From: Syntrophaceticus sp.
GTDB taxonomy: Bacteria > Bacillota > DSM-12270 > Thermacetogeniales > Thermacetogeniaceae
Direction: 5' to 3'
Assembly: GCA_050949745.1 (NCBI GenBank)
Contig: JBMNGF010000001.1
Coordinates: 18,649 to 58,648 of the forward strand
Length of the DNA: 40,000 nucleotides
In this document: one piece after another, positions 1 through 37,960 of the stretch
Numbering within the stretch: the stretch's first letter is position 1
Layout: the number at the start of each line of letters is the position of its first letter
Translations under genes and position numbers: made by a program
The notes under the pieces: model-generated
Databases searched by the model: none
Told to the model about the DNA's origin: nothing
Seen by the model: only the letters and a program-made list of their open reading frames with translations

Positions 1-1031
1 CGTTCTGTCTCGATATGGATGCCCTGATCTGCCGGAGCATCCTGTATGGCGCTGCCGTGATGCATATCCGTAGCATCGACCAGGATCTCTTCTCTGCCCC
101 GGCGTCCAAACTGATTGGTAACCCTGGCCATCCCCGATGCTCCTGGGCCGGTTTCAGCTGTACCCCCTGCTCCGGGCTGTGATCCTCCACTAGTAGGAGA
201 TATGGGCGTTCCACCCGCAGGCGGGATTGAACCTCCACCGCCCAGGCCGCCTAAAGCTCCCAGGGCTGTTGCAATAAGGCCTGGCACTACAACCCCAGTC
301 ACCGCTTCTGTGGTGTTGGAAGGTCCGGGTATATTGCCAACTGAGCCGACTCCTGCCGGGCTGTGGCTGTGTCCTGACCGATGAGTTCCCGGCGTAATCC
401 CTGTTTCTCCGATGATATCTTCTTCTTGATCCTTATCTTTTTGTGGCTCCTCTTGAACTATATCAGGAGCATCCTGACTTAAAAGTCCCGCCTTTTCCAT
501 GCTATCGATAGCCTGCTGGGCGATACTTTTAGCAGAAGCCAGGTCCGCGCTATGACTCTGGCTGTTATCCACTATTTCCACCGTGATAAAATAATCAGGC
601 AGTATGACTCCAATGCCTGCCCCATTATCGGCAGTATATTCCCTTACTTCACAGCCCTTCAGTTGGGTGGTTTGCATATAAGTAATCTGGGATATGCTGT
701 CCACATAATCGACCATGATCTGTATTTCATCCGGCTGGGCCGGACCCAGAACACTGAGCGCACACACGCCGTCACCATATTCACCCTCCCCGGCATGAAT
801 GGCAAAGTCATAGCCGGTTACCGATTCCTCCCCGAATTGAAACTCTGGTGAGCCAAAGTTGGCGTTGGATACCTGGGTAACAACATCAGCGACACTTCCT
901 GCTATAGCTTTCCCACCGAAAAAATTGGCTATCACCAATGCGAATAACAGACTCAGGGCTAAAACCAACAGGAAATGGCGATGTAATCTCCTTTTATTTC
1001 GCGCAATTGCTAAAATCGACAAGCCTTTCAC
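1..1031 (-). CDS. hypothetical membrane-anchored protein, N-terminal 343 codons only (runs off left edge)
   Basis: Manual translation of the minus strand shows no stop from 1031 to 1. It is absent from the ORF track because no stop lies inside the window. Start is GTG 1031 (alt TTG 1022) behind GGAG/AGGAGG, 11 nt after the upstream stop. The N-terminus VKGLSILAIARNKRRLHRHFLLVLALSLLFALVIANFF is a basic stretch plus one hydrophobic helix. It is followed by a ~150 aa globular part, an acidic linker (QEEPQKDKDQEEDI) and a Gly/Pro/Ser-rich segment. Plus-strand ORFs 115-384, 552-851 and 859-1179 look like antisense shadows. Confidence 0.55.
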   Translation of the reverse strand, partial: MKGLSILAIARNKRRLHRHFLLVLALSLLFALVIANFFGGKAIAGSVADVVTQVSNANFGSPEFQFGEESVTGYDFAIHAGEGEYGDGVCALSVLGPAQPDEIQIMVDYVDSISQITYMQTTQLKGCEVREYTADNGAGIGVILPDYFITVEIVDNSQSHSADLASAKSIAQQAIDSMEKAGLLSQDAPDIVQEEPQKDKDQEEDIIGETGITPGTHRSGHSHSPAGVGSVGNIPGPSNTTEAVTGVVVPGLIATALGALGGLGGGGSIPPAGGTPISPTSGGSQPGAGGTAETGPGASGMARVTNQFGRRGREEILVDATDMHHGSAIQDAPADQGIHIETE

Positions 1032-1042
1032 CTCCTGTTCTC

Positions 1043-1534
1043 CTATGGCAGGATGCCGATCAGCATCATCCATACCGTCGAAAGCACCATCGCTACTAAG
1101 GTCGGGATCATTACATTTCTCGTCCCTTGAGCGCCCCTTTTCATGGCTTCCGTTCCTGCCGTTGCAGATGCTGTTGTGATGGCAGTCGAAGCAAAAGGCA
1201 TTACCACATTCCACTCCAGAATGACCAAAGCCAGTATGGCTAAAACAGTAAAAGGGATCATAAACAACATGCCGGTACCAACGGCTTCCCGGGCAAAACC
1301 TCCGTCAGTCTGCCGCAAAGCAGTGTTACCGCTGTTAAATGCCAGGATCAGCAGATTTACCGCTAATAAACCCACTACAATGGCAATAACAAGGGAATAT
1401 AGTACAGTAGTGAATTTGTATTCCGGTCTGCTGAAGGGTACCAAGACCCCGAATATAATGAAACACAGATAAGCCGGCCAAATTTTTACCCCATCAGACC
1501 CAGCTCCTCCGGCATATCCCAGTTTAGTATCCAC
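1043..1534 (-). CDS. hypothetical polytopic membrane protein (163 aa)
   Basis: ORF track. It has several long hydrophobic segments (AYLCFIIFGVLVPF, VLYSLVIAIVVGLLAVNLLILAF, GMLFMIPFTVLAILALVILEW, MIPTLVAMVLSTVWMMLIGIL). It is tightly packed with flanking same-strand genes. No family recognised. Confidence 0.6.
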   Translation of the reverse strand: MDTKLGYAGGAGSDGVKIWPAYLCFIIFGVLVPFSRPEYKFTTVLYSLVIAIVVGLLAVNLLILAFNSGNTALRQTDGGFAREAVGTGMLFMIPFTVLAILALVILEWNVVMPFASTAITTASATAGTEAMKRGAQGTRNVMIPTLVAMVLSTVWMMLIGILP

Positions 1535-1572
1535 CTTATCCTCCTCCTGTTCGTTGATTGTTATTTGCTCTG

Positions 1573-2166
1573 CTAAGCGCCGAATCTCCCCAGCAAGGCC
1601 CAGCCGATCAAGAGGATCGCTCCACAGAGAGTGGTCATGGCAATGCTGAATGCGACCCTTTCCCCTGACATCTGTTTAATGGTGTACAGGGTGGGTCTTA
1701 ATGCCCACAAGACGCCGGTCACGCCAAAGGCGACTGCAGTCTTCCAGCCAAATGCGAGAGAAAAAATCAGCCCGCTCAAAGCATAAACGAAGGTAGCTGA
1801 ATAGCCCAGGGCAAAGGTGGATATAGCCCAATCCACAGTGATCTTTCGTTCCCCCGCCTGGGCCAGGGCCCAGACCATAACCGCCAACAAGGCCACGCCG
1901 GCCGTACCGTAGAGCAATCCCAGCATAGTGATGAGAACCACGCCAGACGCTTCGATTTGTCCGTTCCGCATCAAGTCCAGCCCAGTCTGCAGGAAAAAGA
2001 GCATGAATGACAAACCTGATATGGCCAAGGAATAAGGCCAGGGGATTTTTATCATCTGATTTTTAACTATTTCGCCTGGATTCGTTATTATACTGAGTGC
2101 CGTCTTCCAGCGGAGTTGTGCTGGTGCTGCCATAGTGTTCATAGGCTTATTGATCCCTCCTGTCAA
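1573..2166 (-). CDS. integral membrane protein, Yip1-domain-like (tentative)
   Basis: ORF track. It has about 5 TM helices after a short cytoplasmic N-terminus, an architecture and length typical of bacterial Yip1/DUF1282-type proteins. Codon 1 in the track is TTG. A more likely start is ATG 2142 (MNTMAAPAQ) downstream of AGGAGGG. Confidence 0.55.
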   Translation of the reverse strand: MTGGINKPMNTMAAPAQLRWKTALSIITNPGEIVKNQMIKIPWPYSLAISGLSFMLFFLQTGLDLMRNGQIEASGVVLITMLGLLYGTAGVALLAVMVWALAQAGERKITVDWAISTFALGYSATFVYALSGLIFSLAFGWKTAVAFGVTGVLWALRPTLYTIKQMSGERVAFSIAMTTLCGAILLIGWALLGRFGA

Positions 2167-2240
2167 AATTTTTGTATAAAGGAACTTTTTCTACCCCGGT
2201 TTGGTTTACCGCAGGGCCATTAATCATTGTAGAACACTGT

Positions 2241-2549
2241 CTATCGCTGCAAAACAAACTTTGCCCCAAATTCCTGGTCCAAATTAACCGCCAGTTTCTT
2301 TAAGTCAGTCTCTGCCGCCAAACTGCCAACATATATGTCAGTTGTAGTGACAATCTCCAGTTCAGCATTAGTCAGATTCCTGCTCATAATGTTGACCGAC
2401 TGCAGTTCATCCCCATTTATGACCACCCTATCGTTGCCATCGTGCTCCTGAGGGATCAAAATTATTTGCCCGGAGCCGACCTTAAGGTAATAAACCTGAG
2501 TTTTAAAGAACCCGGCTTTAAGCCTGATTTCAAAGGTCACCATAATCAC
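2241..2549 (-). CDS. small soluble hypothetical protein (about 100 aa), first gene of the membrane operon
   Basis: ORF track. There is an AGAGG Shine-Dalgarno before ATG 2543 / GTG 2549. No hydrophobic segment and no recognisable motif. Confidence 0.5.
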   Translation of the reverse strand: MIMVTFEIRLKAGFFKTQVYYLKVGSGQIILIPQEHDGNDRVVINGDELQSVNIMSRNLTNAELEIVTTTDIYVGSLAAETDLKKLAVNLDQEFGAKFVLQR

Positions 2550-2601
2550 CTCTGTTTAAAGTTTAGCAAATTTTCTTATAAAAGTTATTGCTCCTAGTGA
2601 T

Positions 2602-2637
2602 TTGGCATTGCCAATTTCGTGGCACAAATCGTGCCAA
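2602..2637. promoter_or_regulatory. nested palindromes in the divergent promoter region (candidate operator)
   Basis: TTGGCATTGCCAA (2602-2614) and GGCACAAATCGTGCC (2621-2635) lie together. The outer arms TTGGCA (2602-2607) and TGCCAA (2632-2637) are also complementary. The site sits between the divergent 2241-2549 operon and the XRE regulator gene. Confidence 0.3.
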
Positions 2638-2750
2638 AATTGCAGTAAATATGTTGTGCAATATGCTAAAATAAACTTGGTAAATAAATAATTTTACCAG
2701 AGATTTTTGCATACCCATATGCCTGAGCAAGCGAAAGGAATGGTCATATA

Positions 2751-4298
2751 ATGACATTTGCTGAAAAGCTTGATTTGCTGATGAACATCACCAATACTTC
2801 CAACAGCCTCCTAGCCCACAGCATTTCCTTGGATGCATCCTTTATCAGCCGTTTACGCCGAGGAGTCCGCGCCCCTGCCAAAAATGCTAACTACATACAA
2901 GCAATGAGCGGTTACTTTGCCCGGTGCTGCCAGGCCGAATACCAAAAGACGGCCCTTTGGAACGCCATTCGCACCAGTTCCCCCATTCAGCCCCAGTCAA
3001 CGGACAGCATGGCCAGCCTTATAGAGCAATGGCTATGGGAACCAGCCCAGGATGATTCCGACCCTATAGATGAATTGTTGGAAAGCATGATTGACTTTAG
3101 GTTTAAAAGAATGGAAACCGCGGCCACGGTTGATCTGCCAATAAATGACAACCAAGCCATTGCGGAAACAGAAGTATTTTATGGAGTGAAAGGCAAGCGT
3201 GCTGCCGTACTGACCTTCTTGTCCCTGGTAATATCCAATAAGCATCCACAAACATTGTTGCTCTTCAGTGATGAGGATTTGAGCTGGCTTACTGAAGATC
3301 CTGAGTTCACTGCTAAATGGTCTGCACTCATGTTACAAGTATTAAAAAACGGCAACCGACTTAAAATGATCCATACTATAAATCGTAATCTTGATGAAAT
3401 GCTGTCCGGTATTAAAGGATGGATACCACTCTATATGACTGGAGCCATAGAGCCCTATTACTATCCCAAAACCCGGGACGGTTTGTTCCGGCGCACATTG
3501 TTTATTGCTCCCGACACCGCAGCAGTAAGTTCTTCATCGGTGCACAGCGGAACCCAAAATACAGCTAATTTTTTTACTACCAATAGAGATGCTATCCGTG
3601 CGCTGGCTAGTGAATATAATAATCTTATCGCCCTATGCCGCCCCCTGATGCGGATTTTCAACCATAATCACCAGGGAAACTATCTGGAAACCCTAGCCGA
3701 ATTCGAAGAAGAGGCCGGCGACACCATCGCCAAGACCGATATGCTGACTAACATAACCATTCCCGAGGAGGCAGCTGCCAGCATACTAGTGCGCCTGAGC
3801 GATGTCATCGCTAACCGGTTGCGCACTTATCAGCAGCGCAGAATAAAGACTTTTTATGATAAACTGGGAACTCACCGTTTTACTGAAATCCTCTCTCTCC
3901 CTGACCTGGAGACAATCCTGGCGGGTAAAGCTGTGGTAAACCTGTCCGCTATTCCCAATGAAACCCAGGTATTCTATACTCCCCGAGAATACTATTTACA
4001 CCTGCAGAATATCTTGCGCCTGCTCAAGACCTATGACAACTACCACATACATTTGACCGGTACCAAGCAGCTGGAGGGAAACATGATCTATGTCAAGGAG
4101 GATGTGGGGGTGTTGGTAGGCAGAACTGCAGTGCCCGCGGTCATATTTGCCATCAATGAGAGTAATATGACAGCCGCCTTCTGGGATTATATGAATGTTC
4201 TGTTACCTAAGGAGTACACCAGTACCAAGAATCGCAGCCATACTATTAAGAAGATCGAGGCGCTGGCTGCCCGGTTGGAAGCTTCATTAGTTCCATAG
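2751..4298 (+). CDS. XRE-family HTH transcriptional regulator with large uncharacterised C-terminal domain (515 aa)
   Basis: ORF track. The N-terminal FAEKLDLLMNITNTSNSLLAHSISLDASFISRLRRGVRAP resembles the HTH_3/Cro-C1 pattern (FxxxLxxL...S...LA....xxSxISRxxxG...P). The remaining ~450 aa carry no motif I recognise. It is divergent from the membrane operon. Confidence 0.7.
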   Translation: MTFAEKLDLLMNITNTSNSLLAHSISLDASFISRLRRGVRAPAKNANYIQAMSGYFARCCQAEYQKTALWNAIRTSSPIQPQSTDSMASLIEQWLWEPAQDDSDPIDELLESMIDFRFKRMETAATVDLPINDNQAIAETEVFYGVKGKRAAVLTFLSLVISNKHPQTLLLFSDEDLSWLTEDPEFTAKWSALMLQVLKNGNRLKMIHTINRNLDEMLSGIKGWIPLYMTGAIEPYYYPKTRDGLFRRTLFIAPDTAAVSSSSVHSGTQNTANFFTTNRDAIRALASEYNNLIALCRPLMRIFNHNHQGNYLETLAEFEEEAGDTIAKTDMLTNITIPEEAAASILVRLSDVIANRLRTYQQRRIKTFYDKLGTHRFTEILSLPDLETILAGKAVVNLSAIPNETQVFYTPREYYLHLQNILRLLKTYDNYHIHLTGTKQLEGNMIYVKEDVGVLVGRTAVPAVIFAINESNMTAAFWDYMNVLLPKEYTSTKNRSHTIKKIEALAARLEASLVP

Positions 4299-4300
4299 AG

Positions 4301-4429
4301 GTGGCAGGGGGACGTTTCGTTTGCCACATGAGTCATGTGACACACATGTGACACGGGGACGGGGTTACTGTCACGTTGGCGTGTGACAGGGGGACGCGTG
4401 TGACAGGGGGACGTGTGACAGGGGGACGT
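4301..4429. repeat. G/C-rich mosaic repeat array, left part (interrupted by the IS)
   Basis: It starts 3 nt after the regulator stop. GACGTTTCGTTTGCCAC lies at 4311-4327. The hairpin-like GTGACACGGGGACGGGGTTACTGTCAC follows. GTGTGACAGGGGGACG occurs head-to-tail at 4381-4396, 4398-4413 and 4414-4428. Confidence 0.85.
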
Positions 4430-6075
4430 CAGACTGTGTGAAAACTCCCCACAGAAAAAGGAATTAAAGGGATAAAGATCGAAATATAGGGTGATAGAGA
4501 GGTGGAGAAAATGCCGTACATAAAAGGAGAAAACCGCAACCAAATCACCCTGTTTCCAGAGGCAGTAGATGACTATATCACCCCGGACAATCCGGTTCGG
4601 GTAATAGAGGCTTTTGTAGATTCCCTTGACATGAAAGAACTGGGCTTCAAAAGAACAACTCCCAATGATGTGGGGAGACCAGCATATGATCCCCGGGACC
4701 TCTTAAAACTTTATCTTTACGGGTACTTGAACCGCATCCGCTCATCGAGAAAATTAGAAGCTGAAGCAGGAAGAAACGTTGAGCTGATGTGGCTCCTTAA
4801 AAAACTGAAACCGGACTTCAAAACAATTGCCGATTTCCGCAAAGACAACAAAAAAGCCATCAAAAACGTTTTCAAACAATTCAACCTGCTGTGCAAAGAA
4901 TGGGATCTGTTCGGATGTGAAGTAATAGCAGTAGACGGCTCCAAGTTCAGAGCATGCAACTCCAAACGCAACAACTACAATGATAAAAAAATAAAACGCC
5001 ACCTGAAATACCTGAACGAGAAAATATCAAACTATCTAAAAGAGCTGGACAGCAACGATCAGGAAGAAGCGGACATCCATATCCCCAATGCAGAAGAAAT
5101 CAAAAAGCGTATTGAAGAACTAAAAAAACGCAAAGCCAAATACCAGGCCATGCAAAAAGAAATGAAAGAAAAAAAGATCGATGAAATCTCCACCACAGAC
5201 CCCGATGCCCGCTTGATGAAGGTTAATAACAACGGGGCAGATGTCTGCTACAATGTACAAACAGCAATAGACCAAAAAAACAAACTGCTCGTAGACTACG
5301 ACGTAATTAACAACGCAGCAGACCAAGGGAATCTTTACGAGATGGCTAAAAAAGCCAAAGAAACATTGGGTGTTGAAGAAATAAAAGCCTTGGCCGATAA
5401 AGGCTATTACTCCACCTTAGACCTCAAAAAATGCGAAAAAAACAAAATTGAAACCTATGTAGCCAAGCCAAAAAATACTGGTGGTGTGGCGAATCCTGAT
5501 TTTCATCAAGATCGTTTCCAATATGACCAAGAACAAAACATTTACATATGCCCTGCCGGGCAGACACTTTACCCCGGCCGTATTAGAAAAGTAAAAGGTG
5601 TTGAATATCAAGACTACAAGAACTTCAGAGCCTGCAAGCAATGTAAGTTTAAAGACCAGTGTACCAGTTCCAAAAAGGGCAGAACCATTTCACGAAATCT
5701 TTGTCAGGAACTTCTTGATGAAATAGACAAACGAACACAGGAAAACAAAGAACTATACGCCCAGAGGCAGAGGCTAGCAGAACACCCCTTTGGCACCATC
5801 AAAAGGATATGGGGTTACAGCCATTTTCTGACCAAGGGGTTAGAGTCGGTAAAAACAGAATCGGCCTTGAGTTTTCTGGCCTACAACCTGCGAAGGGTGA
5901 TAAATATTCTGGGAGTTGAAAAAATGATAAAATTATTGACCCCCGCATAAGCGTGAGTCTTCTTTTCGTCTCTTAAAAACAGGTAGTAATCTCTTAAATT
6001 TTAGCTATCAACACCTGATTTAGCGTTGGTGGATACTAATATTTAGAAAAACCTGCATGTTTGTCACACAGTCTG
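4430..6075 (+). mobile_element. IS1182-family-like insertion sequence (about 1.65 kb)
   Basis: Terminal inverted repeats are CAGACTGTGTGAAAAC (4430-4445) and the reverse complement of 6059-6075, CAGACTGTGTGACAAAC. ACGT flanks both ends (4426-4429 and 6076-6079). This is either a 4-bp palindromic target duplication or an IR extension. The element carries a single transposase gene. Confidence 0.85.
4511..5950 (+). CDS. IS1182/IS5-superfamily DDE transposase
   Basis: ORF track 4502-5950, with ATG 4511 behind GAGAGGTGGAG. The N-terminus MPYIKGENRNQITLFPEAVDDYITPDNPVRVIEAFVDSLD is the typical DUF772/InsH-type N-terminal domain. It also has a lysine-rich coiled middle, a Cys cluster (YICPAGQTL...CKQCKFKDQC) and a C-terminal ERQRLAEHPFGTIKRxWG motif. 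Confidence 0.9.
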   Translation: MPYIKGENRNQITLFPEAVDDYITPDNPVRVIEAFVDSLDMKELGFKRTTPNDVGRPAYDPRDLLKLYLYGYLNRIRSSRKLEAEAGRNVELMWLLKKLKPDFKTIADFRKDNKKAIKNVFKQFNLLCKEWDLFGCEVIAVDGSKFRACNSKRNNYNDKKIKRHLKYLNEKISNYLKELDSNDQEEADIHIPNAEEIKKRIEELKKRKAKYQAMQKEMKEKKIDEISTTDPDARLMKVNNNGADVCYNVQTAIDQKNKLLVDYDVINNAADQGNLYEMAKKAKETLGVEEIKALADKGYYSTLDLKKCEKNKIETYVAKPKNTGGVANPDFHQDRFQYDQEQNIYICPAGQTLYPGRIRKVKGVEYQDYKNFRACKQCKFKDQCTSSKKGRTISRNLCQELLDEIDKRTQENKELYAQRQRLAEHPFGTIKRIWGYSHFLTKGLESVKTESALSFLAYNLRRVINILGVEKMIKLLTPA

Positions 6076-6332
6076 ACGTTTCGTTTGCCACATGAGTCAT
6101 GTGACACGCATGTGACACGGGGACGGGGTTACTGTCACGTTGGCGTGTGACAGGGGGACGTGTGACAGGGGGACGGTGACAGGGGGACGGGGGTCTTGTC
6201 ACGCCGGGTGCCACGGAGACGTTTCGTTTGCCACGGGGTGCCCCGGGGTGCCACGAGGACGGGGGTCTTGTCACGCGAGTCAAAGTCCCCGTCCCCTTGA
6301 CTCACGTCCCCTTGACTCATCCCCTTGACTCA
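6076..6332. repeat. G/C-rich mosaic repeat array, right part
   Basis: It re-starts the same ~90 nt seen at 4311-4396. GACGTTTCGTTTGCCAC lies at 6075-6091 and again at 6218-6234. (GT)GTGACAGGGGGACG lies at 6145-6160, 6161-6175 and 6176-6189. GACGGGGGTCTTGTCACGC lies at 6186-6204 and 6258-6276. GTCCCCTTGACTCA lies at 6291-6304, 6306-6319 and 6320-6332. Confidence 0.85.
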
Positions 6333-6373
6333 GATAAAACGTTGAGCATCCTCAAAAGTCACATTTTGTTTTA

Positions 6374-6886
6374 TCATTTAAGGCCGGAAATCATCAGTTC
6401 AAAATGCTGCTTTGTCTGTGCCTTCAAATCAAAATCAGGATAGCGTACACACCATTCATATGTGATTCCTCTGAATGCTATCATAAAATGTCTGGCTAGA
6501 ATAGTCGCGGGCAGATTTGTCTTCAATTCATTTCGACCTATCTCTGTTTCCAATATATTTTCAAACATTTTATAAAGCAGCCTGTTATATCCCATTATAG
6601 CATCCGGATTAATATCTTTAGCGATCTGTGCTTTGTAAACTGCTTTCATATTGTCACATCCGATCTTATTCGTCAGTACATCAGTCATTTTTTCAATAAA
6701 CGAAAGAGGTATTTCTTCTGTGGACAGATTGGGAGGGATAGATTCCAGATAAGCTCTATAATCCATATCAATCTTGCCTACATAGTCGTTGATTAACTCA
6801 GCAATCAAAGCATCCTTTGATTCAAAATGCACATAGAAGGTACCCTTCTCCGGAGTTTCGGATTTGCAATTAGGGACCTTTACCAT
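6374..6886 (-). pseudogene. TetR/AcrR-family regulator, 5'-truncated remnant
   Basis: The ORF begins MVKVPNCKSETPEKGTFYVHFESKDALIAELI. Only the tail of the TetR HTH (GTFYxHFxSKxxL) is present, so about 40-45 N-terminal residues including helices 1-2 are missing. The rest looks like a TetR C-terminal ligand domain. It abuts another gene fragment 5 nt away. Confidence 0.6.
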
Positions 6887-6891
6887 AGTTA

Positions 6892-7317
6892 ATGCTTCGC
6901 AGACCCGTAGCCATTACATCTGATGGCCAGGTCTATTTCACAGGTTCGAGCCGAGATGTTGTCGCTGCATATGAAATAAGCATAACAGATGGAAATTATA
7001 CCGGTAGATTGAACCTTCTGTTCAATCTTGGCAGCAAATACGATGGAAAAACGTATACTATATATCATGAGAAGAAAAGCGGCGAGATTGAAAAATATAC
7101 AGCAGTCTGCACAGAAGGTAAGGTTGCCATAGCCATTGATGAGCTCTCACCCTTCCTCATCACTATTGCAGTACAGGCAGATAGCGATAATGTTATTCCT
7201 CAGACCGGCGACAACAGTAATCTGTTTTCTTGGGTGATATTAGCAGCCTTATCCGCAATAACACTCATGTTAGTGTTAGTTCATGGCAGGAACAAAAGAA
7301 ATAAATTCTCAAATTAA
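6892..7317 (+). pseudogene. C-terminal fragment of a sortase-anchored (IPQTG) surface protein
   Basis: It ends with IPQTGDNSNLFSWVILAALSAITLMLVLVHGRNKRNK, which is an LPXTG-type motif plus hydrophobic helix plus basic tail. It is only 141 aa with no N-terminal signal peptide, and an in-frame TAG lies directly upstream (6886-6888). Confidence 0.55.
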
Positions 7318-7325
7318 CGCTCCGT

Positions 7326-7400
7326 AAGTCAAGGGGATGAGTCAAAGCCTCCGTCCCCTTGACTCAAAGCCTCCGTCCCCTTGACTCATTGACTCACTCA
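7326..7400. repeat. tandem GTCCCCTTGACTCA-type repeats
   Basis: AAGTCAAGGGGATGAGTCA carries the word in inverted form. Two 22-bp units, AAAGCCTCCGTCCCCTTGACTC, follow, with the core at 7353-7366 and 7375-7388. An extra TTGACTCACTCA follows them. The array overlaps the stop codon of the Crp/Fnr gene (7398-7400). Confidence 0.8.
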
Positions 7401-8090
7401 ATCCTGGGCCCACAGCAGTTCGTCTAAATTAAGAACTTCTATCTTCCTTTGTGGCTTCTGCTTAATATATCCCGCTTGTTCGAAATCGGTTAATTTCCGA
7501 CTGATTGTTTCAGGAGTTGTCCCTAGGAAAGAAGCCAAATCCCTTTTACTCATCGGTAATACAAACTCCATTGCCCCTTCCCCATCGAGACACTCGGCTA
7601 TAAAAAGTGCAAGTCTGGTCTCCACCTTCTCCGTAGAAACTCTTATTGTTTGCTTCTCCGATTTTTCCAGCCTGCTCGATAATTCCTCTAAAATTTTCAA
7701 AGAGATCGAGGGGAATTTCAAAAGCAATCTCTGTAACTCAGCACGAGCAATCAGACAGACTTCAGTGTTTTCCACAGCCTCGGCGTAGGACTCATGAACG
7801 GACTCACTAAACAAGGCAAGTTCACCTGTGAAATCCCCCGGACTCAAAAAACGCACCAATTGTTCCTTACCTGATTCAGACAAACGATAAATCCTGACTC
7901 TCCCACTTCTGACAACATAGAGTGAATCTGATTGCTCTCCAGCCCGATAGATAATCTCGCCCTTTTTATATGATTCTGACTGAATCACTTCTGTGATTTC
8001 AGCCATTTGCCCATCTTCGAGATGATTAAATATCGGCACCTGATAGATACATGACTTGAGCCCCCCAGATTTACACTCATGTTCGCCCAT
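7398..8090 (-). CDS. Crp/Fnr-family transcriptional regulator
   Basis: It has a cNMP-binding-like barrel (GEIIYRAGEQSDSLYVVRSGRVRIYR...GDFTGELALF) and a C-terminal HTH (SKRDLASFLGTTPETISRKLTDFEQAGYI). Cys residues lie at positions 6, 14, 112 and 166. It starts 21 nt downstream of the ATPase gene with a GGGAGGGAG Shine-Dalgarno. Confidence 0.85.
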   Translation of the reverse strand: MGEHECKSGGLKSCIYQVPIFNHLEDGQMAEITEVIQSESYKKGEIIYRAGEQSDSLYVVRSGRVRIYRLSESGKEQLVRFLSPGDFTGELALFSESVHESYAEAVENTEVCLIARAELQRLLLKFPSISLKILEELSSRLEKSEKQTIRVSTEKVETRLALFIAECLDGEGAMEFVLPMSKRDLASFLGTTPETISRKLTDFEQAGYIKQKPQRKIEVLNLDELLWAQD

Positions 8091-8111
8091 TTCAACTCTC
8101 CCTCCCAGTCC

Positions 8112-10013
8112 TTATCCCAATTCGGTCGCTGCGCTTCCCTTTTTACTGTTGAATCCTATCAATCTCATGGCATTGATTATCACGATTAAAATACTGGCTT
8201 CATGGATAAACATTCCTGATGCCAAATGCACATAGCCCAATAATACCCCAGCTAACAGGATAAATACAATTGAAACCGCAATACATGTGTTTTGCTTCAT
8301 ATTCCGAACCGTGGACTTGGCAAGAGCATAGGCATGGGAGAACTGCATTAGCTTATCTGCCATCAGGACCACATCCGCTGTCTCCATGGACACATCTGTG
8401 CCACCTTCACCCATTGCCAAGCCTATATCCGCAGTCGCAATAGCTGGTGCATCATTAATCCCATCCCCTGCCATCGCCACTACATGCCCCGCCTCTTTCA
8501 ATTTTTTGACATATTCCACTTTGTCTTCCGGCAATAATTCCGCCTGAAATTCATCTAATCCGAGCACATTGGCAACTACTTCAGCCGTATGCTTATTGTC
8601 CCCGGTCAGCATAACCATCTTCTTGATACCATTCCTTCTCAGCTCCGCTAAAGCGTTTGAGGCATCTTCACGGATCTGATCAGCAATAGAAATAATGCCG
8701 GCAACCTGACCATCTACAGCAGCGAATATTGCCGTGTTCCCTGCTTTTTCACGCTTGACAGCATAAGCAGCAACCTGATCACTGATCTGGATATTTTCAG
8801 CTTCCATCAACTTGCGGTTACCAATTGCCAAGGCGTAACCATCAACTTGGGCACGAACTCCACTGCCCTTAATCACTTCGCCGTCAAGTGATTCTCCTTC
8901 AAGGCTCAGCTTCCTCTTATCAGCTTCCTTGACAATCGTGCGCCCTAGATGATGCTCCGAAATAGTCTCCGCCTTCGCCACCAACCTGAGCAATGCGTCA
9001 CTCTCCAGATTGCCGAATACCTTGATATCTGTTACTTCTGGTTTTCCTTTAGTTAAGGTACCTGTTTTGTCAAATACAATTGTATCAACCTTAGACAACC
9101 GATCCATAACCTCTCCACCTTTGAGCAGGACACCGTTTCTGGCGCCGTTTCCGATCCCGGCAACAGTAGATACAGGCGCCCCAATGACCAAGGCACCAGG
9201 ACAAGCAACAACTAAAAAAGTAATTGCTAGATGGAGATTATGGGTTATTAGATAAACAATTACCGATAAGATAACAACTGACGGTGTATAGTAAGTTGCG
9301 AACTTATCCAGAAATTTCTGGGTTTTTGATTTTGATTCTTGCGCCTCTTCGACAAGCTCGATTATTTTGGCAAAGGTAGTATCATCCCCAACCTTTTCAG
9401 CAATAATTTCAATATAGCCATTATCGACAATTGTGCCACTATAAACCGTATCACCAACCTCTTTCGATGCCGGCACGGATTCACCTGTAATAGCCGCTTC
9501 ATTTAATATGGCTTTACCGGACACGATGCTGCCATCTACAGGAACCTTGCCGCCAGGCCTGATAATAACCCGATCACCTTTGACAACTTCATCCACAGCT
9601 ATCGTCAGGCTTTCCCCTTCACGAATGACATCCGCTTCCTGTGGTGCCATGTCCACAAGTGCTCTTATTGAAGAGCGGGTTTTTTCCAGTGTACGCGCTT
9701 CTAAGTAGGCACCAAATAAAAATAAGAACGACACAACAGAAGACTCGACAAACTCATTAAGATAAAGTGCGCCTACGACAGCGATGGTCACCAATAATTC
9801 AATACTAAAGACCTTCATGCGCAGCGCTTGGAAAGCCCTGATGGCGATTGGGATAATGCCAATTATCGTTGCCCCGATCAACGCCAAATCCTTATAGCTT
9901 TCATATCCTGTTACTATAAACACAATACCAAGGGCGATCAGTATCCCGGAAATGGCCGTAATCTGATTAACATACTTATTAATATACTTATTAATTGTGT
10001 TAATCATCTCCAT
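8112..10013 (-). CDS. heavy-metal translocating P1B-type ATPase (no fused metal-binding domain; CPG transmembrane motif)
   Basis: Motifs present are ITGESVP (actuator), DKTGTLT (phosphorylation), GDGINDAPA (hinge), ACPGALVIGAP where CPC/SPC normally sits, and HEASILIVIINAMRL in the last TM helix. The start overlaps the upstream HMA gene by 14 nt. Confidence 0.9.
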   Translation of the reverse strand: MEMINTINKYINKYVNQITAISGILIALGIVFIVTGYESYKDLALIGATIIGIIPIAIRAFQALRMKVFSIELLVTIAVVGALYLNEFVESSVVSFLFLFGAYLEARTLEKTRSSIRALVDMAPQEADVIREGESLTIAVDEVVKGDRVIIRPGGKVPVDGSIVSGKAILNEAAITGESVPASKEVGDTVYSGTIVDNGYIEIIAEKVGDDTTFAKIIELVEEAQESKSKTQKFLDKFATYYTPSVVILSVIVYLITHNLHLAITFLVVACPGALVIGAPVSTVAGIGNGARNGVLLKGGEVMDRLSKVDTIVFDKTGTLTKGKPEVTDIKVFGNLESDALLRLVAKAETISEHHLGRTIVKEADKRKLSLEGESLDGEVIKGSGVRAQVDGYALAIGNRKLMEAENIQISDQVAAYAVKREKAGNTAIFAAVDGQVAGIISIADQIREDASNALAELRRNGIKKMVMLTGDNKHTAEVVANVLGLDEFQAELLPEDKVEYVKKLKEAGHVVAMAGDGINDAPAIATADIGLAMGEGGTDVSMETADVVLMADKLMQFSHAYALAKSTVRNMKQNTCIAVSIVFILLAGVLLGYVHLASGMFIHEASILIVIINAMRLIGFNSKKGSAATELG

Positions 10014-10239
10014 ACCCCCTTTTTACCTTTTTAAGTTCCACATCACCAACCAAACTGCCAATCATGCTCTCTAAATCCTCTGCACTTGCCTTTATTTCAT
10101 CGAATTCCATGATGATCCTGCCCAAGCTCGGAAAAACCTTCGCTGAACTGACGCCACTCTGCTTCAGTAATTCAGCTTCGATTTGCTTACCACAGCCTGG
10201 GCAGCCAAGTGGTGTTATCTGAAACAACGCTTTGCCCAT
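10000..10239 (-). CDS. stand-alone heavy-metal-associated (HMA) domain protein, CPGC motif
   Basis: At 79 aa, GCPGCGKQIEAELLKQSGVSSAKV fits the HMA CxxC-loop plus helix pattern. An AGGAGGGAG Shine-Dalgarno lies 5 nt before ATG 10239. Confidence 0.75.
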   Translation of the reverse strand: MGKALFQITPLGCPGCGKQIEAELLKQSGVSSAKVFPSLGRIIMEFDEIKASAEDLESMIGSLVGDVELKKVKRGYGDD

Positions 10240-10299
10240 ATTATCTCCCTCCTATCCTTCTTCCTGCATTATTTATATCTCATACCCGATTTATTCGCC

Positions 10300-10313
10300 T
10301 TGATTAAAATCAA
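10300..10313. promoter_or_regulatory. FNR/CRP-type palindrome TTGATTAAAATCAA
   Basis: This is a perfect TTGAT-N4-ATCAA. On the minus strand it is followed after 23 nt by ATAAAT (TATAAA), so the box centre is ~30 nt upstream of the -10 hexamer, about 10 nt further to the start site (class II geometry). The centre lies ~67 nt upstream of ATG 10239. Confidence 0.5.
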
Positions 10314-10328
10314 TATTTCATTGAAGCA

Positions 10329-10362
10329 AGAAAAAACCATGGCCTGGATGTAGGCCATGGTA
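10329..10362 (-). terminator. intrinsic terminator after the scdA-HMA unit
   Basis: Minus-strand hairpin CCATGGCC-TACATCCA-GGCCATGG (10360-10337) is followed by TTTTTTC. Confidence 0.65.
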
Positions 10363-10392
10363 AAACAGATAAACTTAGGTTGAGCAGACAAA

Positions 10393-10614
10393 TCAGGAAA
10401 CTTTCGAATTCACTACCGTAAAACCTAAGTTTTCAATAAGAAGTTTTAATTTTTCGGCATCTGTTTGAGTGTCATCAAATTCCGTTTTTACCTTGCTTGA
10501 GTTGAATAATACTCTTACCGATTCAACCCCTTTAGCCTTGGCCAGTGTAGCTTCGATTTTCTTAACACAGGTCGGACATGTAATTGTCTCTAAGCGAAAT
10601 TCTGCCTTTGCCAT
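10393..10614 (-). CDS. stand-alone HMA / CopZ-like metallochaperone, CPTC motif
   Basis: MAKAEFRLETITCPTCVKKIEATLAKAKGVESVRVLFNSSKVKTEFDD is a classic HMA fold pattern. GGAGGG lies 8 nt before ATG 10614. The longer track ORF (to 10704) would overlap scdA and is less likely. Confidence 0.75.
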   Translation of the reverse strand: MAKAEFRLETITCPTCVKKIEATLAKAKGVESVRVLFNSSKVKTEFDDTQTDAEKLKLLIENLGFTVVNSKVS

Positions 10615-10636
10615 ATTGATTTTCCCTCCTTCGCAT

Positions 10637-11332
10637 TTAGTAACGCTTGAATAGTACGCTATTCTCCTTCGCAATATGAAGGAAAACATCATCAGCCAAC
10701 TCATGGAGTTTCTGATAAACAGCCTTCACCGTAGGACATGCAAACTCCGGCGGTGTAAAATCGTTGGTCTCCTTGATTAAACGCTTAATAATCTTTCCGG
10801 CGCCATCATGCTCATCTTCTAATTCACTGATCAGTGACCTTATGGCTGCTCGATCTTCAGGAGTTTTATCAACCTTAAGCATAGCAGGAAAAAGTTCCTT
10901 CTCCTCTTTAGCAAAATGCTCCTCCAGTTCCATCTTTAACTCGCTGAAGCTTCTATGGATCTTCAACATTAATTCCTTGTCATGCTCATAATGAACGAGC
11001 ATAATCAAATTTACAAGCTTATCTAGTTCCTTCCATAATGCTCGCTCTGTCAGATGATGGGTATCAAGTATAAGGTCAATGAGTTCTTCATCAGAAAGCT
11101 CAGACACAGGGCGTTCCTTATCTGATCTGGCTAAATAATCACTATAGGCATTCTGAACCTCAGTGATGAAATCTGGGGTAAGGCCTGCTTCATCTATTGC
11201 TGACTCAAGAGAGCGATCCCCTTGGGAGCAGTAATCAATATGCAGCTCATTCAGACGTGAAGTAATGGCAGGAAAATAAGTAACAAGATCGCCAAGCTTT
11301 GTTTGGCCGTTGATAGTTATGGTCTGTCTCAT
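10637..11332 (-). CDS. scdA: iron-sulfur cluster repair di-iron protein (ScdA/YtfE/RIC family)
   Basis: The N-terminal ScdA_N-like segment (LGDLVTYFPAITSRLNELHIDYC) is followed by hemerythrin-type His/Glu motifs (THHLTERALWKEL, EEHFAKEEKELFP, ELEDEHDGAG, DDVFLHIAKEN). Confidence 0.85.
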   Translation of the reverse strand: MRQTITINGQTKLGDLVTYFPAITSRLNELHIDYCSQGDRSLESAIDEAGLTPDFITEVQNAYSDYLARSDKERPVSELSDEELIDLILDTHHLTERALWKELDKLVNLIMLVHYEHDKELMLKIHRSFSELKMELEEHFAKEEKELFPAMLKVDKTPEDRAAIRSLISELEDEHDGAGKIIKRLIKETNDFTPPEFACPTVKAVYQKLHELADDVFLHIAKENSVLFKRY

Positions 11333-11405
11333 TAGATTATCCTCCTTTGCATACTTTTTTCGTCTATCTTTCTTTTTATACTAATTCATTCCAAGAAAAA
11401 AAACC

Positions 11406-11419
11406 TTGACTAAAATCAA
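11406..11419. promoter_or_regulatory. FNR/CRP-type box TTGACTAAAATCAA
   Basis: It has one mismatch to TTGAT-N4-ATCAA. The flanks are almost identical to the 10300 site (CCTTGAYTAAAATCAATWTTTCA). On the minus strand, 23 nt separate it from TAGTAT. The centre lies ~80 nt upstream of the scdA ATG. Confidence 0.45.
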
Positions 11420-11463
11420 TTTTCAGGACAGGAAGTATATTTTATCTTAATGTCTTTGCCAAC

Positions 11464-12981
11464 TCATTCCTGTAGATATTTCCAAACTATAACTTTGTTA
11501 CGGCCATCTTCCTTTGCCTTGTATAATGCTCTGTCTGCTGTGCCAATTAACTCATCAGGCTCCATTCTTTCAGCAGGAACAATAGATGCTACACCTAGGC
11601 TGACTGTTATAACCCCTTTTATTTTTTCGTTTTCTATTCCCAGCTCTTCCACTCTTCTTCGAATTTCCTCGGCAACAACTGCCGCTCCCTCGGCAGTAGT
11701 ATTTGTGAGCATTACCACAAATTCCTCACCACCGTAACGTGCTGCAAGATCACCTGGTCTCTTTATTACACCTTTTATGACCTCTGCGATTCTTATCAAT
11801 GCTTGGTCACCTGCTAGATGACCATATGTATCATTAAAGATCTTGAAACGATCAATATCTATCATGATCAGAGCCAGCGGCATCCCTTCACGCAGACTTA
11901 ATTTCCAGGCTCTATTATATGCAATATCAAAAGCTCTTCTGTTCTCAATTGAGGTTAGGCCATCTATTATTGAAATCTGTTCAAGCTTAATATTAGCTGC
12001 CTTTAACATTTCATTTGCATGATGGAGTTCCCCAGTTCTTTCTTTGACACTAACCTCAAGCTTTTCACTTAATTTTCGGTATTTTCTAACAAAATAAATT
12101 GCGACTAATGCTACCAATAATAGAAAGAGACTAGCAGAGCGCAGAAAAAACGTTTGATAATAATCTTCGGTTAGGTATACCACTCTCTTGCCTTGCCACT
12201 GTTCCATTATTTTATCAACAGTGCCATCCTCAGTAATTTCTGTAAGGCCGGAATTAATCAGAGCCAACGTTTCGGCATCGCCTTTTCTGACGGCAATTCT
12301 GGAATACTGAGTCTCAACAGGTTTCTCCACGATCCCTATACCAGGTATCCTGCTTTGAGCAAGTTCATATTCACCGATCCATCGGTCCACAATAATCGCA
12401 TCTAAATCCCCAGCGCTTAAGTCTCTGAAGGAAGTTTCCCAATCATCGATCTTTTCAATGTCTATTCCTTCATATCCTTGAAGCAAGCTGATCGGATAAC
12501 CGCCTGCCTCTACGCCAACACGCTTGCCTCTTAAGTCATCAATACTCCTTAAGGTAATATTGCCGCTTTGAACGAAAATTGAAAAGTCGGATTTTAGCAG
12601 AGGACTTGAGAAATCATAAAGTTTATTTCTTTCAGGACCAGGATTGATTTGAAGAAGCCCATCAGCATAACCATTAAGCACCATGGTTTGTGCTTGCTCC
12701 CAATTTACTGCCATAACTTTAATATCGCAACCGATCTTATCTCCGATAGCCTTAGCAATATCAACTGCCACACCTTTAGCTGTTCCGTTGTCATCATATA
12801 CGATGGGAGCCAAATTTTCATTTCCGAGGAAAACCAGAGTATCACGACTGTCATCATTCATAGCAAATCCACTGATAGGCAGAAATAGGTTCAACAAAAA
12901 CAAGACAATAATAACAGTTGTAATATGTGTCCTATTCGTTCTATTCTTACTATGACTTCTCATGGAACTCACAAGAACCAC
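11464..12981 (-). CDS. membrane sensor diguanylate cyclase (periplasmic solute-binding-like domain + GGDEF)
   Basis: RYGGEEFVVML is a GGEEF active site, and DRFKxxNDxxGHxxGD is present (DIDRFKIFNDTYGHLAGD). The N-terminal signal/TM is followed by a family-3 SBP-like domain and a second TM (LFLLLVALVAIYFV). The start is uncertain (12981 vs ATG 12963). Confidence 0.85.
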   Translation of the reverse strand: MVLVSSMRSHSKNRTNRTHITTVIIVLFLLNLFLPISGFAMNDDSRDTLVFLGNENLAPIVYDDNGTAKGVAVDIAKAIGDKIGCDIKVMAVNWEQAQTMVLNGYADGLLQINPGPERNKLYDFSSPLLKSDFSIFVQSGNITLRSIDDLRGKRVGVEAGGYPISLLQGYEGIDIEKIDDWETSFRDLSAGDLDAIIVDRWIGEYELAQSRIPGIGIVEKPVETQYSRIAVRKGDAETLALINSGLTEITEDGTVDKIMEQWQGKRVVYLTEDYYQTFFLRSASLFLLLVALVAIYFVRKYRKLSEKLEVSVKERTGELHHANEMLKAANIKLEQISIIDGLTSIENRRAFDIAYNRAWKLSLREGMPLALIMIDIDRFKIFNDTYGHLAGDQALIRIAEVIKGVIKRPGDLAARYGGEEFVVMLTNTTAEGAAVVAEEIRRRVEELGIENEKIKGVITVSLGVASIVPAERMEPDELIGTADRALYKAKEDGRNKVIVWKYLQE

Positions 12982-19361: not shown

Positions 19362-19510
19362 TACATACCGCTCCTTCTCGCCCGAACATCCTTTCCAACG
19401 ACTAACCGGAAAAACAGAAGTCAGAGACCAGAGGTCAGAAATCTGAAAGACCAGACTGTCTTGGACAATTTCCCGCCCGAACATCCTTCTCAACGACTGT
19501 AGTGTCTGAT

Positions 19511-19540
19511 CCGTGACAAAAGGACCGTCCCCGCGTCACG
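19511..19540. repeat. isolated copy of the GTGAC...GTCCCC...GTCAC hairpin word
   Basis: CCGTGACAAAAGGACCGTCCCCGCGTCACG has arms CGTGAC/GTCACG around a GTCCCC-containing loop. It follows the same design as 4351-4376 (GTGACACGGGGACGGGGTTACTGTCAC). Confidence 0.4.
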
Positions 19541-19586
19541 CCCATCTTTTCCCACTTCCAACATCCCGCTTCTCACATCTCATTTA

Positions 19587-29657: not shown

Positions 29658-29812
29658 AGATCTAGAGCGCTTGGCACCGCTTGATTTGTTGTCTTTCGTG
29701 TGACATGTGACACGGGGACGGGGGTCTTTGACACACGTCATAGATCTAGGGTGCCTGGCACCGTTTGATTTGTTGTCATTTAATTATTCTGTTACTCACG
29801 GTGCCAGGCACC
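29658..29812. repeat. 84-bp-period direct repeat with embedded GTGACACGGGGACGGGGG word and GGTGCCWGGCACC palindromes
   Basis: AGATCTAGAGCGCTTGGCACCGCTTGATTTGTTGTC (29658-29693) matches AGATCTAGGGTGCCTGGCACCGTTTGATTTGTTGTC (29742-29777). Between them lies TTTCGTGTGACATGTGACACGGGGACGGGGGTCTTTGACACACG, which shares ATGTGACACGGGGACGGGG with 4345-4363. Palindromes lie at 29750-29762 and 29800-29812. Confidence 0.7.
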
Positions 29813-34178: not shown

Positions 34179-34277
34179 TGCTGGTCCCTCCTTTCATTAA
34201 TGGTCCTCCTTCCATAATATGTTGCATGGTTACTTATTAGACCCTAAAAACTCAGCAACTGCCCAGGACATGCCCAA

Positions 34278-34369
34278 TCAAGGGGGCAGTCAAGGTAACG
34301 GGGGGCTGGTCTGATTCAAAACCCCCGTCCCCTTGACTTACAGTGATTCAATGAGTCAAGGCGAGTCAA
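34278..34369. repeat. copy of the GTCCCCTTGACT repeat family
   Basis: TCAAGGGGGCAGTCAAGG carries inverted-orientation words. CGTCCCCTTGACTTA lies at 34326-34340. Hairpin arms CCTTGACT (34331-34338) and AGTCAAGG (34354-34361) pair, and GCGAGTCAA follows. Confidence 0.6.
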
Positions 34370-34526
34370 AATAAAAAAGCCCTTCCCCCAGCTATGCGGA
34401 AAAGGCACCATGCCTCACTCTTTCAAGAACTGAATAAAACAGATACAGTTAAAATATATTATATCTTTACAGAACGTTCATCATATCCGGGGCTATCCCT
34501 GTTCCTTAAGCCACACAATAAGTAAC

Positions 34527-37674: not shown

Positions 37675-37845
37675 AAATGCCGGACTTCCTCCCTATACCA
37701 CATTTTCCCCGTATTCTTCCCTTCATAAAAATTCTTATTCTGTACGGAGAAATTCATCCACATATGTATCTTTGTTCAATAATTTTATAAAATAAGGCAG
37801 GAATTTTCCCAAGATCGGCGAATTGTCTTAATATAGTTAAATATA

Positions 37846-37944
37846 ATAACTCCGAGTCCGCTGTCCTGTGGCAATTGCTATGGCAGCCGGACCGATAGGG
37901 TGTACCCGGAAACGGATATGCCTCCCAGTGCGGAAAGGAGATTG
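37846..37944 (+). promoter_or_regulatory. molybdenum/tungsten cofactor (Moco-type) riboswitch candidate
   Basis: It contains the conserved words I associate with the Moco RNA motif in the right order: CUCCGAGUC (37850-37858), GCCUCCC (37920-37926) and GGAAAGGAG (37932-37940). Internal hairpins lie between them (GUCCG...CGGAC, GGCAAUUGCU). It sits upstream of a molybdopterin/tungstopterin formate dehydrogenase. Confidence 0.6.
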
Positions 37945-37960
37945 TGGCTAAGACTTACTG

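Follow-up and report, generated by a model that had tools for sequence, protein, structure and literature searches.

The locus analysed here lies in a 40,000-nt stretch of a Syntrophaceticus sp. genome assembly (GCA_050949745.1, contig JBMNGF010000001.1, positions 18,649 to 58,648 of the forward strand), hereafter called the window, in which a first-pass annotation, made by a model from the letters alone, had singled out positions 4301-6332 as a mosaic of tandem G/C-rich words. The block stands between two convergent open reading frames (ORFs), 2751-4298(+) and 6374-6886(-), and is made up of short hairpins, tandem half-units and an insertion sequence (IS) at 4429-6076. With a probability of roughly 85%, we read it as a cluster of extragenic palindromes of the repetitive extragenic palindromic (REP) type, similar to the bacterial interspersed mosaic elements (BIMEs), as the clustered REP arrays of E. 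coli are called, associated with transposases of the REP-associated tyrosine transposase (RAYT) or TIRYT type, and interrupted by an IS1182-family IS that targets the hairpins. The apparent mosaic is two ordinary mobile-DNA processes superimposed, a REP-type family and an IS targeting that family.

The repeated words themselves are real and not a product of chance, since their counts greatly exceed expectation: at up to two mismatches, GTGTGACAGGGGGAC is matched nine times in the window where 0.06 matches are expected, and GTCCCCTTGACTCA eight times where 0.32 are expected. All words reported in the first-pass annotation were recovered at, or at most 1-2 nt away from, the positions it gave, with GTGTGACAGGGGGAC arrays at 4381-4428 and 6145-6189, GACGGGGGTCTTGTCACGC at 6186-6204 and 6258-6276, and the long unit GACGTTTCGTTTGCCAC at 4311, 6075 and 6218. 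We also agree with it that the two words are variants of one motif and that the two array types are inverted with respect to each other; they are 80% complementary over 35 nt, with the GAGTCAA-type arm at 6278-6332 facing the GTGACA array.

Underlying these words is a repeat unit of 27-29 nt, a hairpin built from a 6-7-nt arm, the heptamer GGGGACG, about six further nucleotides and the complementary arm, so the hairpin shape with a GGGGAC-rich loop that had been described for many of the pieces is borne out. The heptamer occupies the 5' side of the loop, and the roughly six pyrimidine-rich nucleotides that follow can pair with its G-run through G-C or G.T pairs. Three subfamilies are mixed at the locus, distinguished by their arms (GTGGCA/TGCCAC, GTGACA/TGTCAC and GAGTCAA/TTGACTC), and tandem half-units, each an arm plus the heptamer, are stacked ahead of a complete hairpin. 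Related genomes add the arm types TGAGCC, GAAGCA, ATATCA and GGGACAA, and at least eight arm types are seen, each self-complementary. In 683 kb from such genomes, perfect 6-bp arms at the fixed spacing surround 179 of 308 GGGGACG cores (58%), compared with 1.3% of random positions, and it is this comparison that provides the unbiased measure, the alignment of 54 sequences having been drawn from hairpin candidates. Within that alignment GGGGACG is invariant, while the arm positions are paired in 89-98% of sequences with two to four pair types each, and the covariation score of 0.479 compares with 0.233 for shuffles and at most 0.19 for slid registers. Two inner positions of the G-run are paired with pyrimidines of the 3' side of the loop in 85-89% of cases, G.T being at least as frequent as G-C.

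The individual units are collected in Table 1. The first hairpin begins 3 nt beyond the stop of ORF 2751-4298, and its core CG (4313-4314) is the counterpart of the right-hand IS junction; half-arm words CATGTGACAC (4334-4354) precede the second hairpin, and GGTGCC words lie between the two degenerate hairpins. The number of words in the half-unit array is polymorphic between alleles (L006). The cluster at 7323-7396 is again placed between convergent ORFs, 6892-7317(+) and 7398-8090(-).

Table 1. Repeat units and mobile element of the hairpin family in the window
Feature	Position	Strand	Remarks
REP-like hairpin, GTGGCA-type	4301-4327	+	GTGGCAG-GGGGACG-TTTCGTT-TGCCAC; unit type also flanks RAYT gene in L015
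REP-like hairpin, GTGACA-type	4348-4374	+	GTGACAC-GGGGACG-GGGTTAC-TGTCAC
Three tandem half-units, arm + GGGGGACG, period 15-17	4381-4428	+	Left part of the IS-interrupted four-word array
IS1182-family IS, 1,648 bp	4429-6076	+	Inverted repeats and transposase gene 4511-5950
Second copy of 4313-4428, right arm of the direct duplication flanking the IS	6077-6189	+	Hairpin 6112-6138, words 6145-6189
Complete GTGACA-type hairpin closing the word array	6176-6202	+	GTGACAG-GGGGACG-GGGGTCT-TGTCAC
Two degenerate hairpins	6208-6274	+	6208-6234, core GGAGACG; 6248-6274, core GAGGACG; one arm mismatch each
GAGTCAA-type hairpin 6278-6302, then half-unit words TGAGTCAAGGGGA(CG) to 6332	6278-6332	-	G-rich strand is the minus strand
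Second family cluster, GAGTCAA-type hairpins 7340-7364 and 7362-7386 with partial units	7323-7396	-	Intergenic
Solitary family hairpin	19512-19540	-	Intergenic gap 19494-19586
Solitary GTGACA-type hairpin 29707-29734 with extra half-arm word	29696-29740	+	Upstream of tRNA cluster
Composite site: one AGTCAA-type hairpin 34314-34338 with partial inverted units	34270-34370	-	Intergenic

Contrary to the possibility, raised in the first-pass annotation, that the words are confined to this locus, units of the family occupy four further intergenic sites in the window, five with the main block, and recur in other genomes. A scan of species-representative genomes with a GAGTCAA-type pattern of 24 specified bases returned 110 stretches from 19 assemblies, a single assembly contributing as many as 21; the assemblies include Syntrophaceticus sp., Thermacetogenium sp. 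UBA5472, and digester metagenome-assembled genomes (MAGs) labelled "Syntrophomonadaceae" and "Bacillota". According to a crude ORF map of our own, 162 of 185 units fall outside predicted genes, though about 84% of the sequence is coding, and units are enriched in convergent intergenic gaps and depleted in divergent ones.

The link to a known type of mobile DNA comes from the genes that the hairpins flank. The metagenome contig L015, which carries the same IS at 99.9% identity, also encodes a 248-aa Y1 transposase, recognised by Pfam (Y1_Tnp) and by the NCBIfam model NF047646, "REP-associated tyrosine transposase" (80.9 bits, cut-off 80), with the motifs HVH and YIHQNP and with E. coli TnpA-REP (4ER8) as its sole solved relative. 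Two GTGGCA-type hairpins in the G-rich orientation lie 5' of this gene, and three units in the opposite orientation lie 3' of it. Four MAGs (L084, L061, L052, L089) contribute four orthologues, which share 70-84% identity among themselves and 40-43% with the L015 protein; a GAGTCAA-type hairpin lies 110-130 nt upstream of each gene, and a second, inverted, follows the stop by about 10 nt. The transposase family is a large one, with more than 6,000 clusters at E<=1e-20, most of them from Clostridia and several named RayT by their source, and homologues in the cultured Clostridia Desulfocucumis palustris, Desulforamulus aquiferis and Clostridium aceticum (L131-L134) show the same inverted flanking, with GGGGACGTTT cores and tandem half-unit words. 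Beside the complete hairpins, the flanks in Desulfocucumis palustris and Clostridium aceticum (L131, L134) contain half-unit words in tandem, such as GGCAAGGGGA three times and CCCCATGGCCA about four times; half-unit arrays thus seem to be a property of the hairpin family that recurs in distant genera.

Metagenomes supplied 71 full-length homologues (35-52% identical), of which 48 carry an arm-GGGGAC(G/A)G unit at most 220 nt upstream, 40 an inverse unit at most 160 nt downstream, and 31 both. The flanking arms are alike within a gene and different between genes: a strict count gives 11 of 21 arm matches within one gene against 7% between genes, and since this count is sensitive to register it undercounts, nearly all flanking pairs being concordant by eye. 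Hairpin-flanked Y1 genes are the REPtron arrangement, and from the inverted flanking by the same hairpins it follows that the repeat family is of the REP type with tyrosine transposases of its own. The first-pass annotation had ruled out a CRISPR array, a coding repeat and a REP element; the first two exclusions stand, and the third is contradicted by short extragenic palindromes whose cognate Y1/RAYT-type genes they flank in inverted orientation.

One could also suppose that the hairpins act as RNA, as intrinsic terminators or stabilising hairpins of 3' untranslated regions that are kept by selection and not mobilised by a transposase. The bias of the units towards gene 3' ends would agree with this, as would the G.U-compatible inner pairs, which favour folding of the G-rich strand, and the T-runs that follow some subfamilies (TGAGCC-type). 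REPs of E. coli are known to stabilise mRNA. Against this explanation, the orientation of the G-rich strand shows no preference with respect to transcription in tandem gene contexts (30 units along it and 33 opposed, on the same crude ORF map), an intrinsic-terminator scan of 4100-7600 gave no match in the repeat block, and Rfam, searched at gathering thresholds over the whole window, returned only tRNAs and a molybdenum cofactor riboswitch, with no family matching the repeats. Moreover, an RNA role leaves the inverted pairs at Y1 genes and the invariant heptamer unexplained. We therefore consider it improbable as the origin of the repeats, though such a role could sit alongside the REP-type interpretation as a secondary function for the host.

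Less probable still, to the point of being very unlikely, is that the words are iterons or operator arrays for the adjacent regulators (the 515-aa ORF 2751-4298, the TetR-like ORF, Crp/Fnr) or for a replication initiator. The first-pass annotation had leaned towards arrays of protein-binding or recombination sites; in part this survives, as the units are plausibly sites for a DNA-processing protein, but the tie to neighbouring regulators fails, with units at unrelated sites and in 19 other genomes. It is true that the words are tandem, clustered and beside regulator-like genes. However, the block sits at the 3' ends of two convergent genes and not at a promoter or origin position, no replication initiator gene is found nearby, the 515-aa ORF has no detectable DNA-binding domain, the same units occur at unrelated loci and flank Y1 genes across Clostridia, and half of the apparent array structure is a duplication associated with the IS.

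This IS, which the first-pass annotation had overlooked, is bounded by terminal inverted repeats TCAGACTGTGTGA (left 4429-4443, right 6062-6076; 13/13 nt matching) and encodes, in a single ORF, a 479-aa transposase with the Pfam domains DUF772 and DDE_Tnp_1_6 that scores 411 bits against NCBIfam NF033551 (IS1182 family; cut-off 270). With its DDE transposase, inverted repeats and near-identical copies, it is an IS1182-family element: over its 1,648 bp, DNA 99.9-100% identical and encoding the same protein is present in at least ten other contexts in digester metagenomes.

REP-targeting IS are known from other families (IS1397, ISKpn1, ISPpu9/10). In the window, the insertion point is the CG of a GGGGACG core. 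Across the IS copies examined, the left flank ends in ...GGGGACG, ...GGGGGCG or ...CCCCG and the right flank begins with CG followed by GGGG, TCCCC, TTTCG or ATGAC; there are at least ten distinct junction contexts, in both orientations, each at a CG beside G or C runs, and in nearly all cases this is the heptamer CG of a recognisable hairpin. The contexts include another Syntrophaceticus species (L057) and a CRISPR spacer, GGGGGCGGGGGG, the latter in L018:2100-4400, where the IS interrupts, at ..AAGGGGG[CG]GGGGGTGAT, one spacer of a CRISPR array whose repeat is GTTTAGAGCGTACCTATGAGGAATTGAAAC. This case shows that the IS requires a G-run-CG-G-run motif and not a REP hairpin as such. Since the clean insertions in L011, L013 and L017 restore a complete hairpin, and the one in L018 the spacer, CG(N) alone being duplicated, the target of the IS is an apical CG bordered by G or C runs.

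A 4-bp NCGN target duplication was rejected, as L011 does not fit it. Of 11 junction pairs, 6 agree with a 3-bp CGN duplication. Among the other five, L003 has its right junction at another core of the block, L020 shares the flanks of L017 but differs in the first base, and L014, L016 and L019 each combine flanks of two separate loci. Between copies, the IS varies in its first and last base (T/G ... A/C/G; window 4429 and 6076; L011-L020), which the 3-bp CGN duplication fits only in part. On a 384-kb contig collinear with the window (L001:7679-9403), a copy of the IS has an internal duplication of about 100 bp and a transposase called at 430 aa, and this copy is probably inactivated.

A published precedent is IS1272, also of the IS1182 family, which targets stem-loops and for which the authors' model includes pathways that duplicate the loop or the whole stem-loop (PMC5678879). 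Both elements have an IS1182-family DDE transposase and hairpin-forming targets downstream of genes, and the loop-duplication pathway is the one followed here. IS1272, in contrast, replaces the stem-loop without duplication (PMC5678879), whereas the present IS retains the hairpin halves and duplicates the apical CG(N), and what it recognises goes beyond structure to a sequence, G/C-run-CG-G/C-run.

The IS also accounts for what had been described as two separate GTGTGACAGGGGGAC arrays. Positions 4311-4428 and 6075-6189 are one segment, a direct duplication of 118 bp (96.6% identical) on either side of the IS, which spans one heptamer to another and places the right IS junction at the heptamer 4308-4314. 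Two metagenome contigs free of the IS (L002, L004) carry the same upstream gene and one continuous block with a single four-word array, and window positions 1-4428 and 6075-12000 both align to them with an overlap of 118 bp. The repeated arrays are therefore one duplicated segment and not two independent arrays, and the array appears twice because this duplication flanks the IS. Without the IS, the block is one stretch of about 285 bp; it folds into a single long composite, the two word arrays pairing with each other (-68.4 kcal/mol, z = -3.4).

A fresh long target duplication is disfavoured, since the 118-bp copies, which differ by one substitution and two indels, have diverged more than the IS copies, which differ by 0-2 nt in 1,648. 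A long target duplication as the general mode of this IS was likewise rejected, long flanking duplications being confined to the window locus among the IS copies compared. In L003 the left junction is as in the window and the right junction lies at a third heptamer, and in L012 two IS copies are separated by a 49-nt spacer that corresponds to window positions 6077-6125; together, these junctions suggest that the cluster is hit repeatedly by the IS, followed by recombination between IS copies. The same contig contains a nest of at least four full or partial IS copies in both orientations, two of them in tandem (L012:1100-6200). The duplication itself may have arisen by unequal recombination between IS copies, may have been present beforehand, or may come from a chimeric assembly.

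That the repeats are MITEs (miniature inverted-repeat transposable elements) or footprints of this IS, for which one could cite that the IS always lies inside repeats and that the arm GTGACA resembles part of its inverted repeat TGTGTGACAA, is hardly credible and was rejected: IS end sequences are confined to the IS ends, the units having no IS terminal sequence and CAGACTG occurring at IS ends only; the units are just 27-29 nt long and have no flanking duplications; the IS also inserts in GAGTCAA-type units and in a CRISPR spacer, both of which lack GTGACA; hairpin-bearing loci from the genome scan, 683 kb in all, yield it only once, as an end of 124 nt in L057; and GGGGACG hairpins flank RAYT genes in Desulfocucumis, Desulforamulus and Clostridium aceticum. 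Local slippage junk, with which the difference in word number between alleles (L006) would agree and which we regard as equally implausible, is excluded by the arm covariation and the dispersal across 19 genomes.

Of the features by which REP/RAYT systems, or REPtrons, are recognised (Nunvar 2010; Bertels & Rainey 2011; Ton-Hoang 2012; reviewed in PMC3733652 and PMC6006769), three are found here, namely short hairpin palindromes, dispersed extragenic copies, and a Y1 gene with inverted flanking repeats. The likeness extends to the imperfect, often clustered or inversely paired state of the palindromes, to their many copies and several subfamilies per genome, to the bias towards convergent and tandem intergenic regions, and to the Y1/HUH gene flanked by its own repeat type, with a protein reaching the NCBI RAYT model. 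Among the differences are that the invariant element is GGGGACG on the 5' loop side, the stems being variable, that the hosts are clostridial and not Proteobacteria, that tandem half-units are common, and that the protein, at about 250 aa (248-256 aa among the homologues), ends in a C-terminal tail that the E. coli enzyme (4ER8, 165 aa) does not have. The last 59 aa of the protein give HTH_23 at E = 0.013, below threshold.

The closest match among described classes is the TIRtron/TIRYT class (Di Nocera et al. 2013, PMC3733652), in which RAYT-like genes are flanked by inverted repeats with GGGGWSAS; some of these repeats are self-complementary and make up families of moderate abundance, in dimers or clusters. 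Quentin et al. 2018 treat the class as the same as TnpA-Y1 subclass 2.1, whose members have a C-terminal helix-turn-helix (HTH) domain (Bac_DnaA_C, HTH_23 or HTH_28; PMC6006769). Shared with TIRtrons are a transposase longer than classical RAYTs, its C-terminal HTH_23 match being weak here, and a gene flanked at fixed distances by inverted repeats with a GGGG-led motif, as well as self-complementary repeats in dimers or clusters. The motif in the present family is GGGGACG(G/T), with G and not A at position 7 of GGGGWSAS, while homologues with GGGGACAG fit the consensus; and whereas TIRtron flanks were described as terminal inverted repeats, each flank here is itself a hairpin whose arms are gene-specific. 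In the text consulted (PMC3733652, PMC6006769), Clostridia do not come up among the TIRtrons. Bertels et al. 2017 note Group 1 RAYTs in Clostridia, with low-abundance flanking 16-mers.

We also considered the CGTC-tagged REPs (Di Nocera et al. 2013), which are likewise small extragenic palindromes occurring as dimers, the heptamer complement CGTCCCC containing CGTC. Those elements have a stem of 8-9 bp with the unpaired tag at one of its ends, a loop of 4-5 nt and a CCA tail, and no transposase is associated with them (PMC3733652). Membership was rejected, CGTC lying here in a loop of about 13 nt, on stems of 6-8 bp, with a transposase associated. The question whether the repeats belong to an already catalogued family, put forward in the first-pass annotation, is thus answered in the affirmative only at the level of kind (REP/RAYT, TIRtron/TIRYT); for this particular hairpin family, our literature search, including Syntrophaceticus and Thermacetogenium, found no published description, and nothing relevant was found on GGGGACG/CGTCCCC combined with REP.

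Several observations weigh against the interpretation as a RAYT/TIRYT-associated REP cluster. The units do not have the GTAG (GT[AG]G) at the hairpin 5' foot that is the classical REP hallmark (alignment A1), and Quentin et al. 2018 report "no REP-like sequences" beside subclass 2.1 genes (PMC6006769). The window contains no RAYT gene, such that the link for this organism rests on L015, whose protein barely clears the NF047646 cut-off, and no RAYT was located for GTGACA-type arms. All comparative loci related to the window are metagenome assemblies, the IS-bearing contigs L014, L015, L016 and L019 unite flanks of different loci, either by recombination or by chimeric assembly, and the 118-bp duplication could in part be an assembly product. 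How many copies this organism has genome-wide is extrapolated rather than counted, and cleavage at the heptamer is a step that we infer by analogy.

What is directly observed is how the hairpins are built, that they are dispersed, and that they flank Y1 genes in inverted orientation; from there a probable mechanism can be proposed, whose further steps are inferred. By analogy with the biochemistry of REP/RAYT and IS200/IS605 systems, the hairpins would be single-strand DNA substrates of RAYT/TIRYT-type Y1 (HUH) tyrosine transposases; the enzyme would recognise them in single-stranded form, the invariant heptamer serving as recognition or cleavage element, and would cut and rejoin the hairpin, spreading copies into non-essential intergenic DNA. 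An inner stem that tolerates G.T fits a strand-specific single-strand substrate, and the tandem half-units may originate by slippage or by cutting and rejoining at the heptamer. The IS1182-family IS then inserted at the CG of one heptamer, which the sequence shows.

One could go further and speculate that the GGGGAC(G/A)G-loop hairpins are the long-missing REP-like substrates of the large subclass 2.1 (TIRYT) Y1 transposases, a group in which hairpin repeats had so far gone unrecognised. Together with what it would entail, we put this forward tentatively, as a possibility that we rate below even odds. If it were true, the heptamer would be a conserved recognition or cleavage site and the stem a specificity code co-varying with the transposase paralogue; in Thermacetogenium- and Syntrophaceticus-like bacteria, the family would have grown to number hundreds of copies; tandem half-unit arrays would be born of cutting and rejoining at the heptamer; and the IS1182-family element would have evolved to exploit the heptamer CG as a safe landing site.

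In practical terms, reading the locus as REP-type repeats plus an IS guards against annotating it as a regulatory array, and the form arm-GGGGACG-N6-arm' offers a concrete substrate candidate for the widespread clostridial RAYT/TIRYT-like transposases, whose DNA partners are poorly described. Repeats and IS together fragment short-read assemblies of syntrophic acetate oxidisers, many contigs terminating exactly at the repeat block just downstream of the 515-aa ORF, which affects MAG quality. Specialists may find interest in the loop heptamer, which is invariant although the stems are paralogue-specific, in the arrays of half-units and in an IS target that is defined by sequence.

As for the neighbouring genes, the first-pass annotation had placed a large XRE regulator 3 nt upstream of the block. 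The spacing is right, but for the 515-aa product of ORF 2751-4298, which NCBI names 'transcriptional regulator', no Pfam or NCBIfam domain supports the XRE label, and none at all was found even at permissive thresholds. On the other side, the TetR-like ORF 6374-6886(-) matches only the last 18 positions of TetR_N. A 59-aa ORF (6889-7068) lies directly upstream of it on the same strand and overlaps the called LPXTG-like ORF 6892-7317(+); a stop codon may thus have split a single TetR gene at positions 6374-7068(-) in two. Elsewhere in the window, ATTAATATACTT is present in 2.5 tandem copies at 9966-9995, at the 5' end of a P-type ATPase ORF (8112-10013, minus strand), and the molybdenum cofactor riboswitch returned by the Rfam search (RF01055, 61.3 bits) lies at 37838-37956(+).

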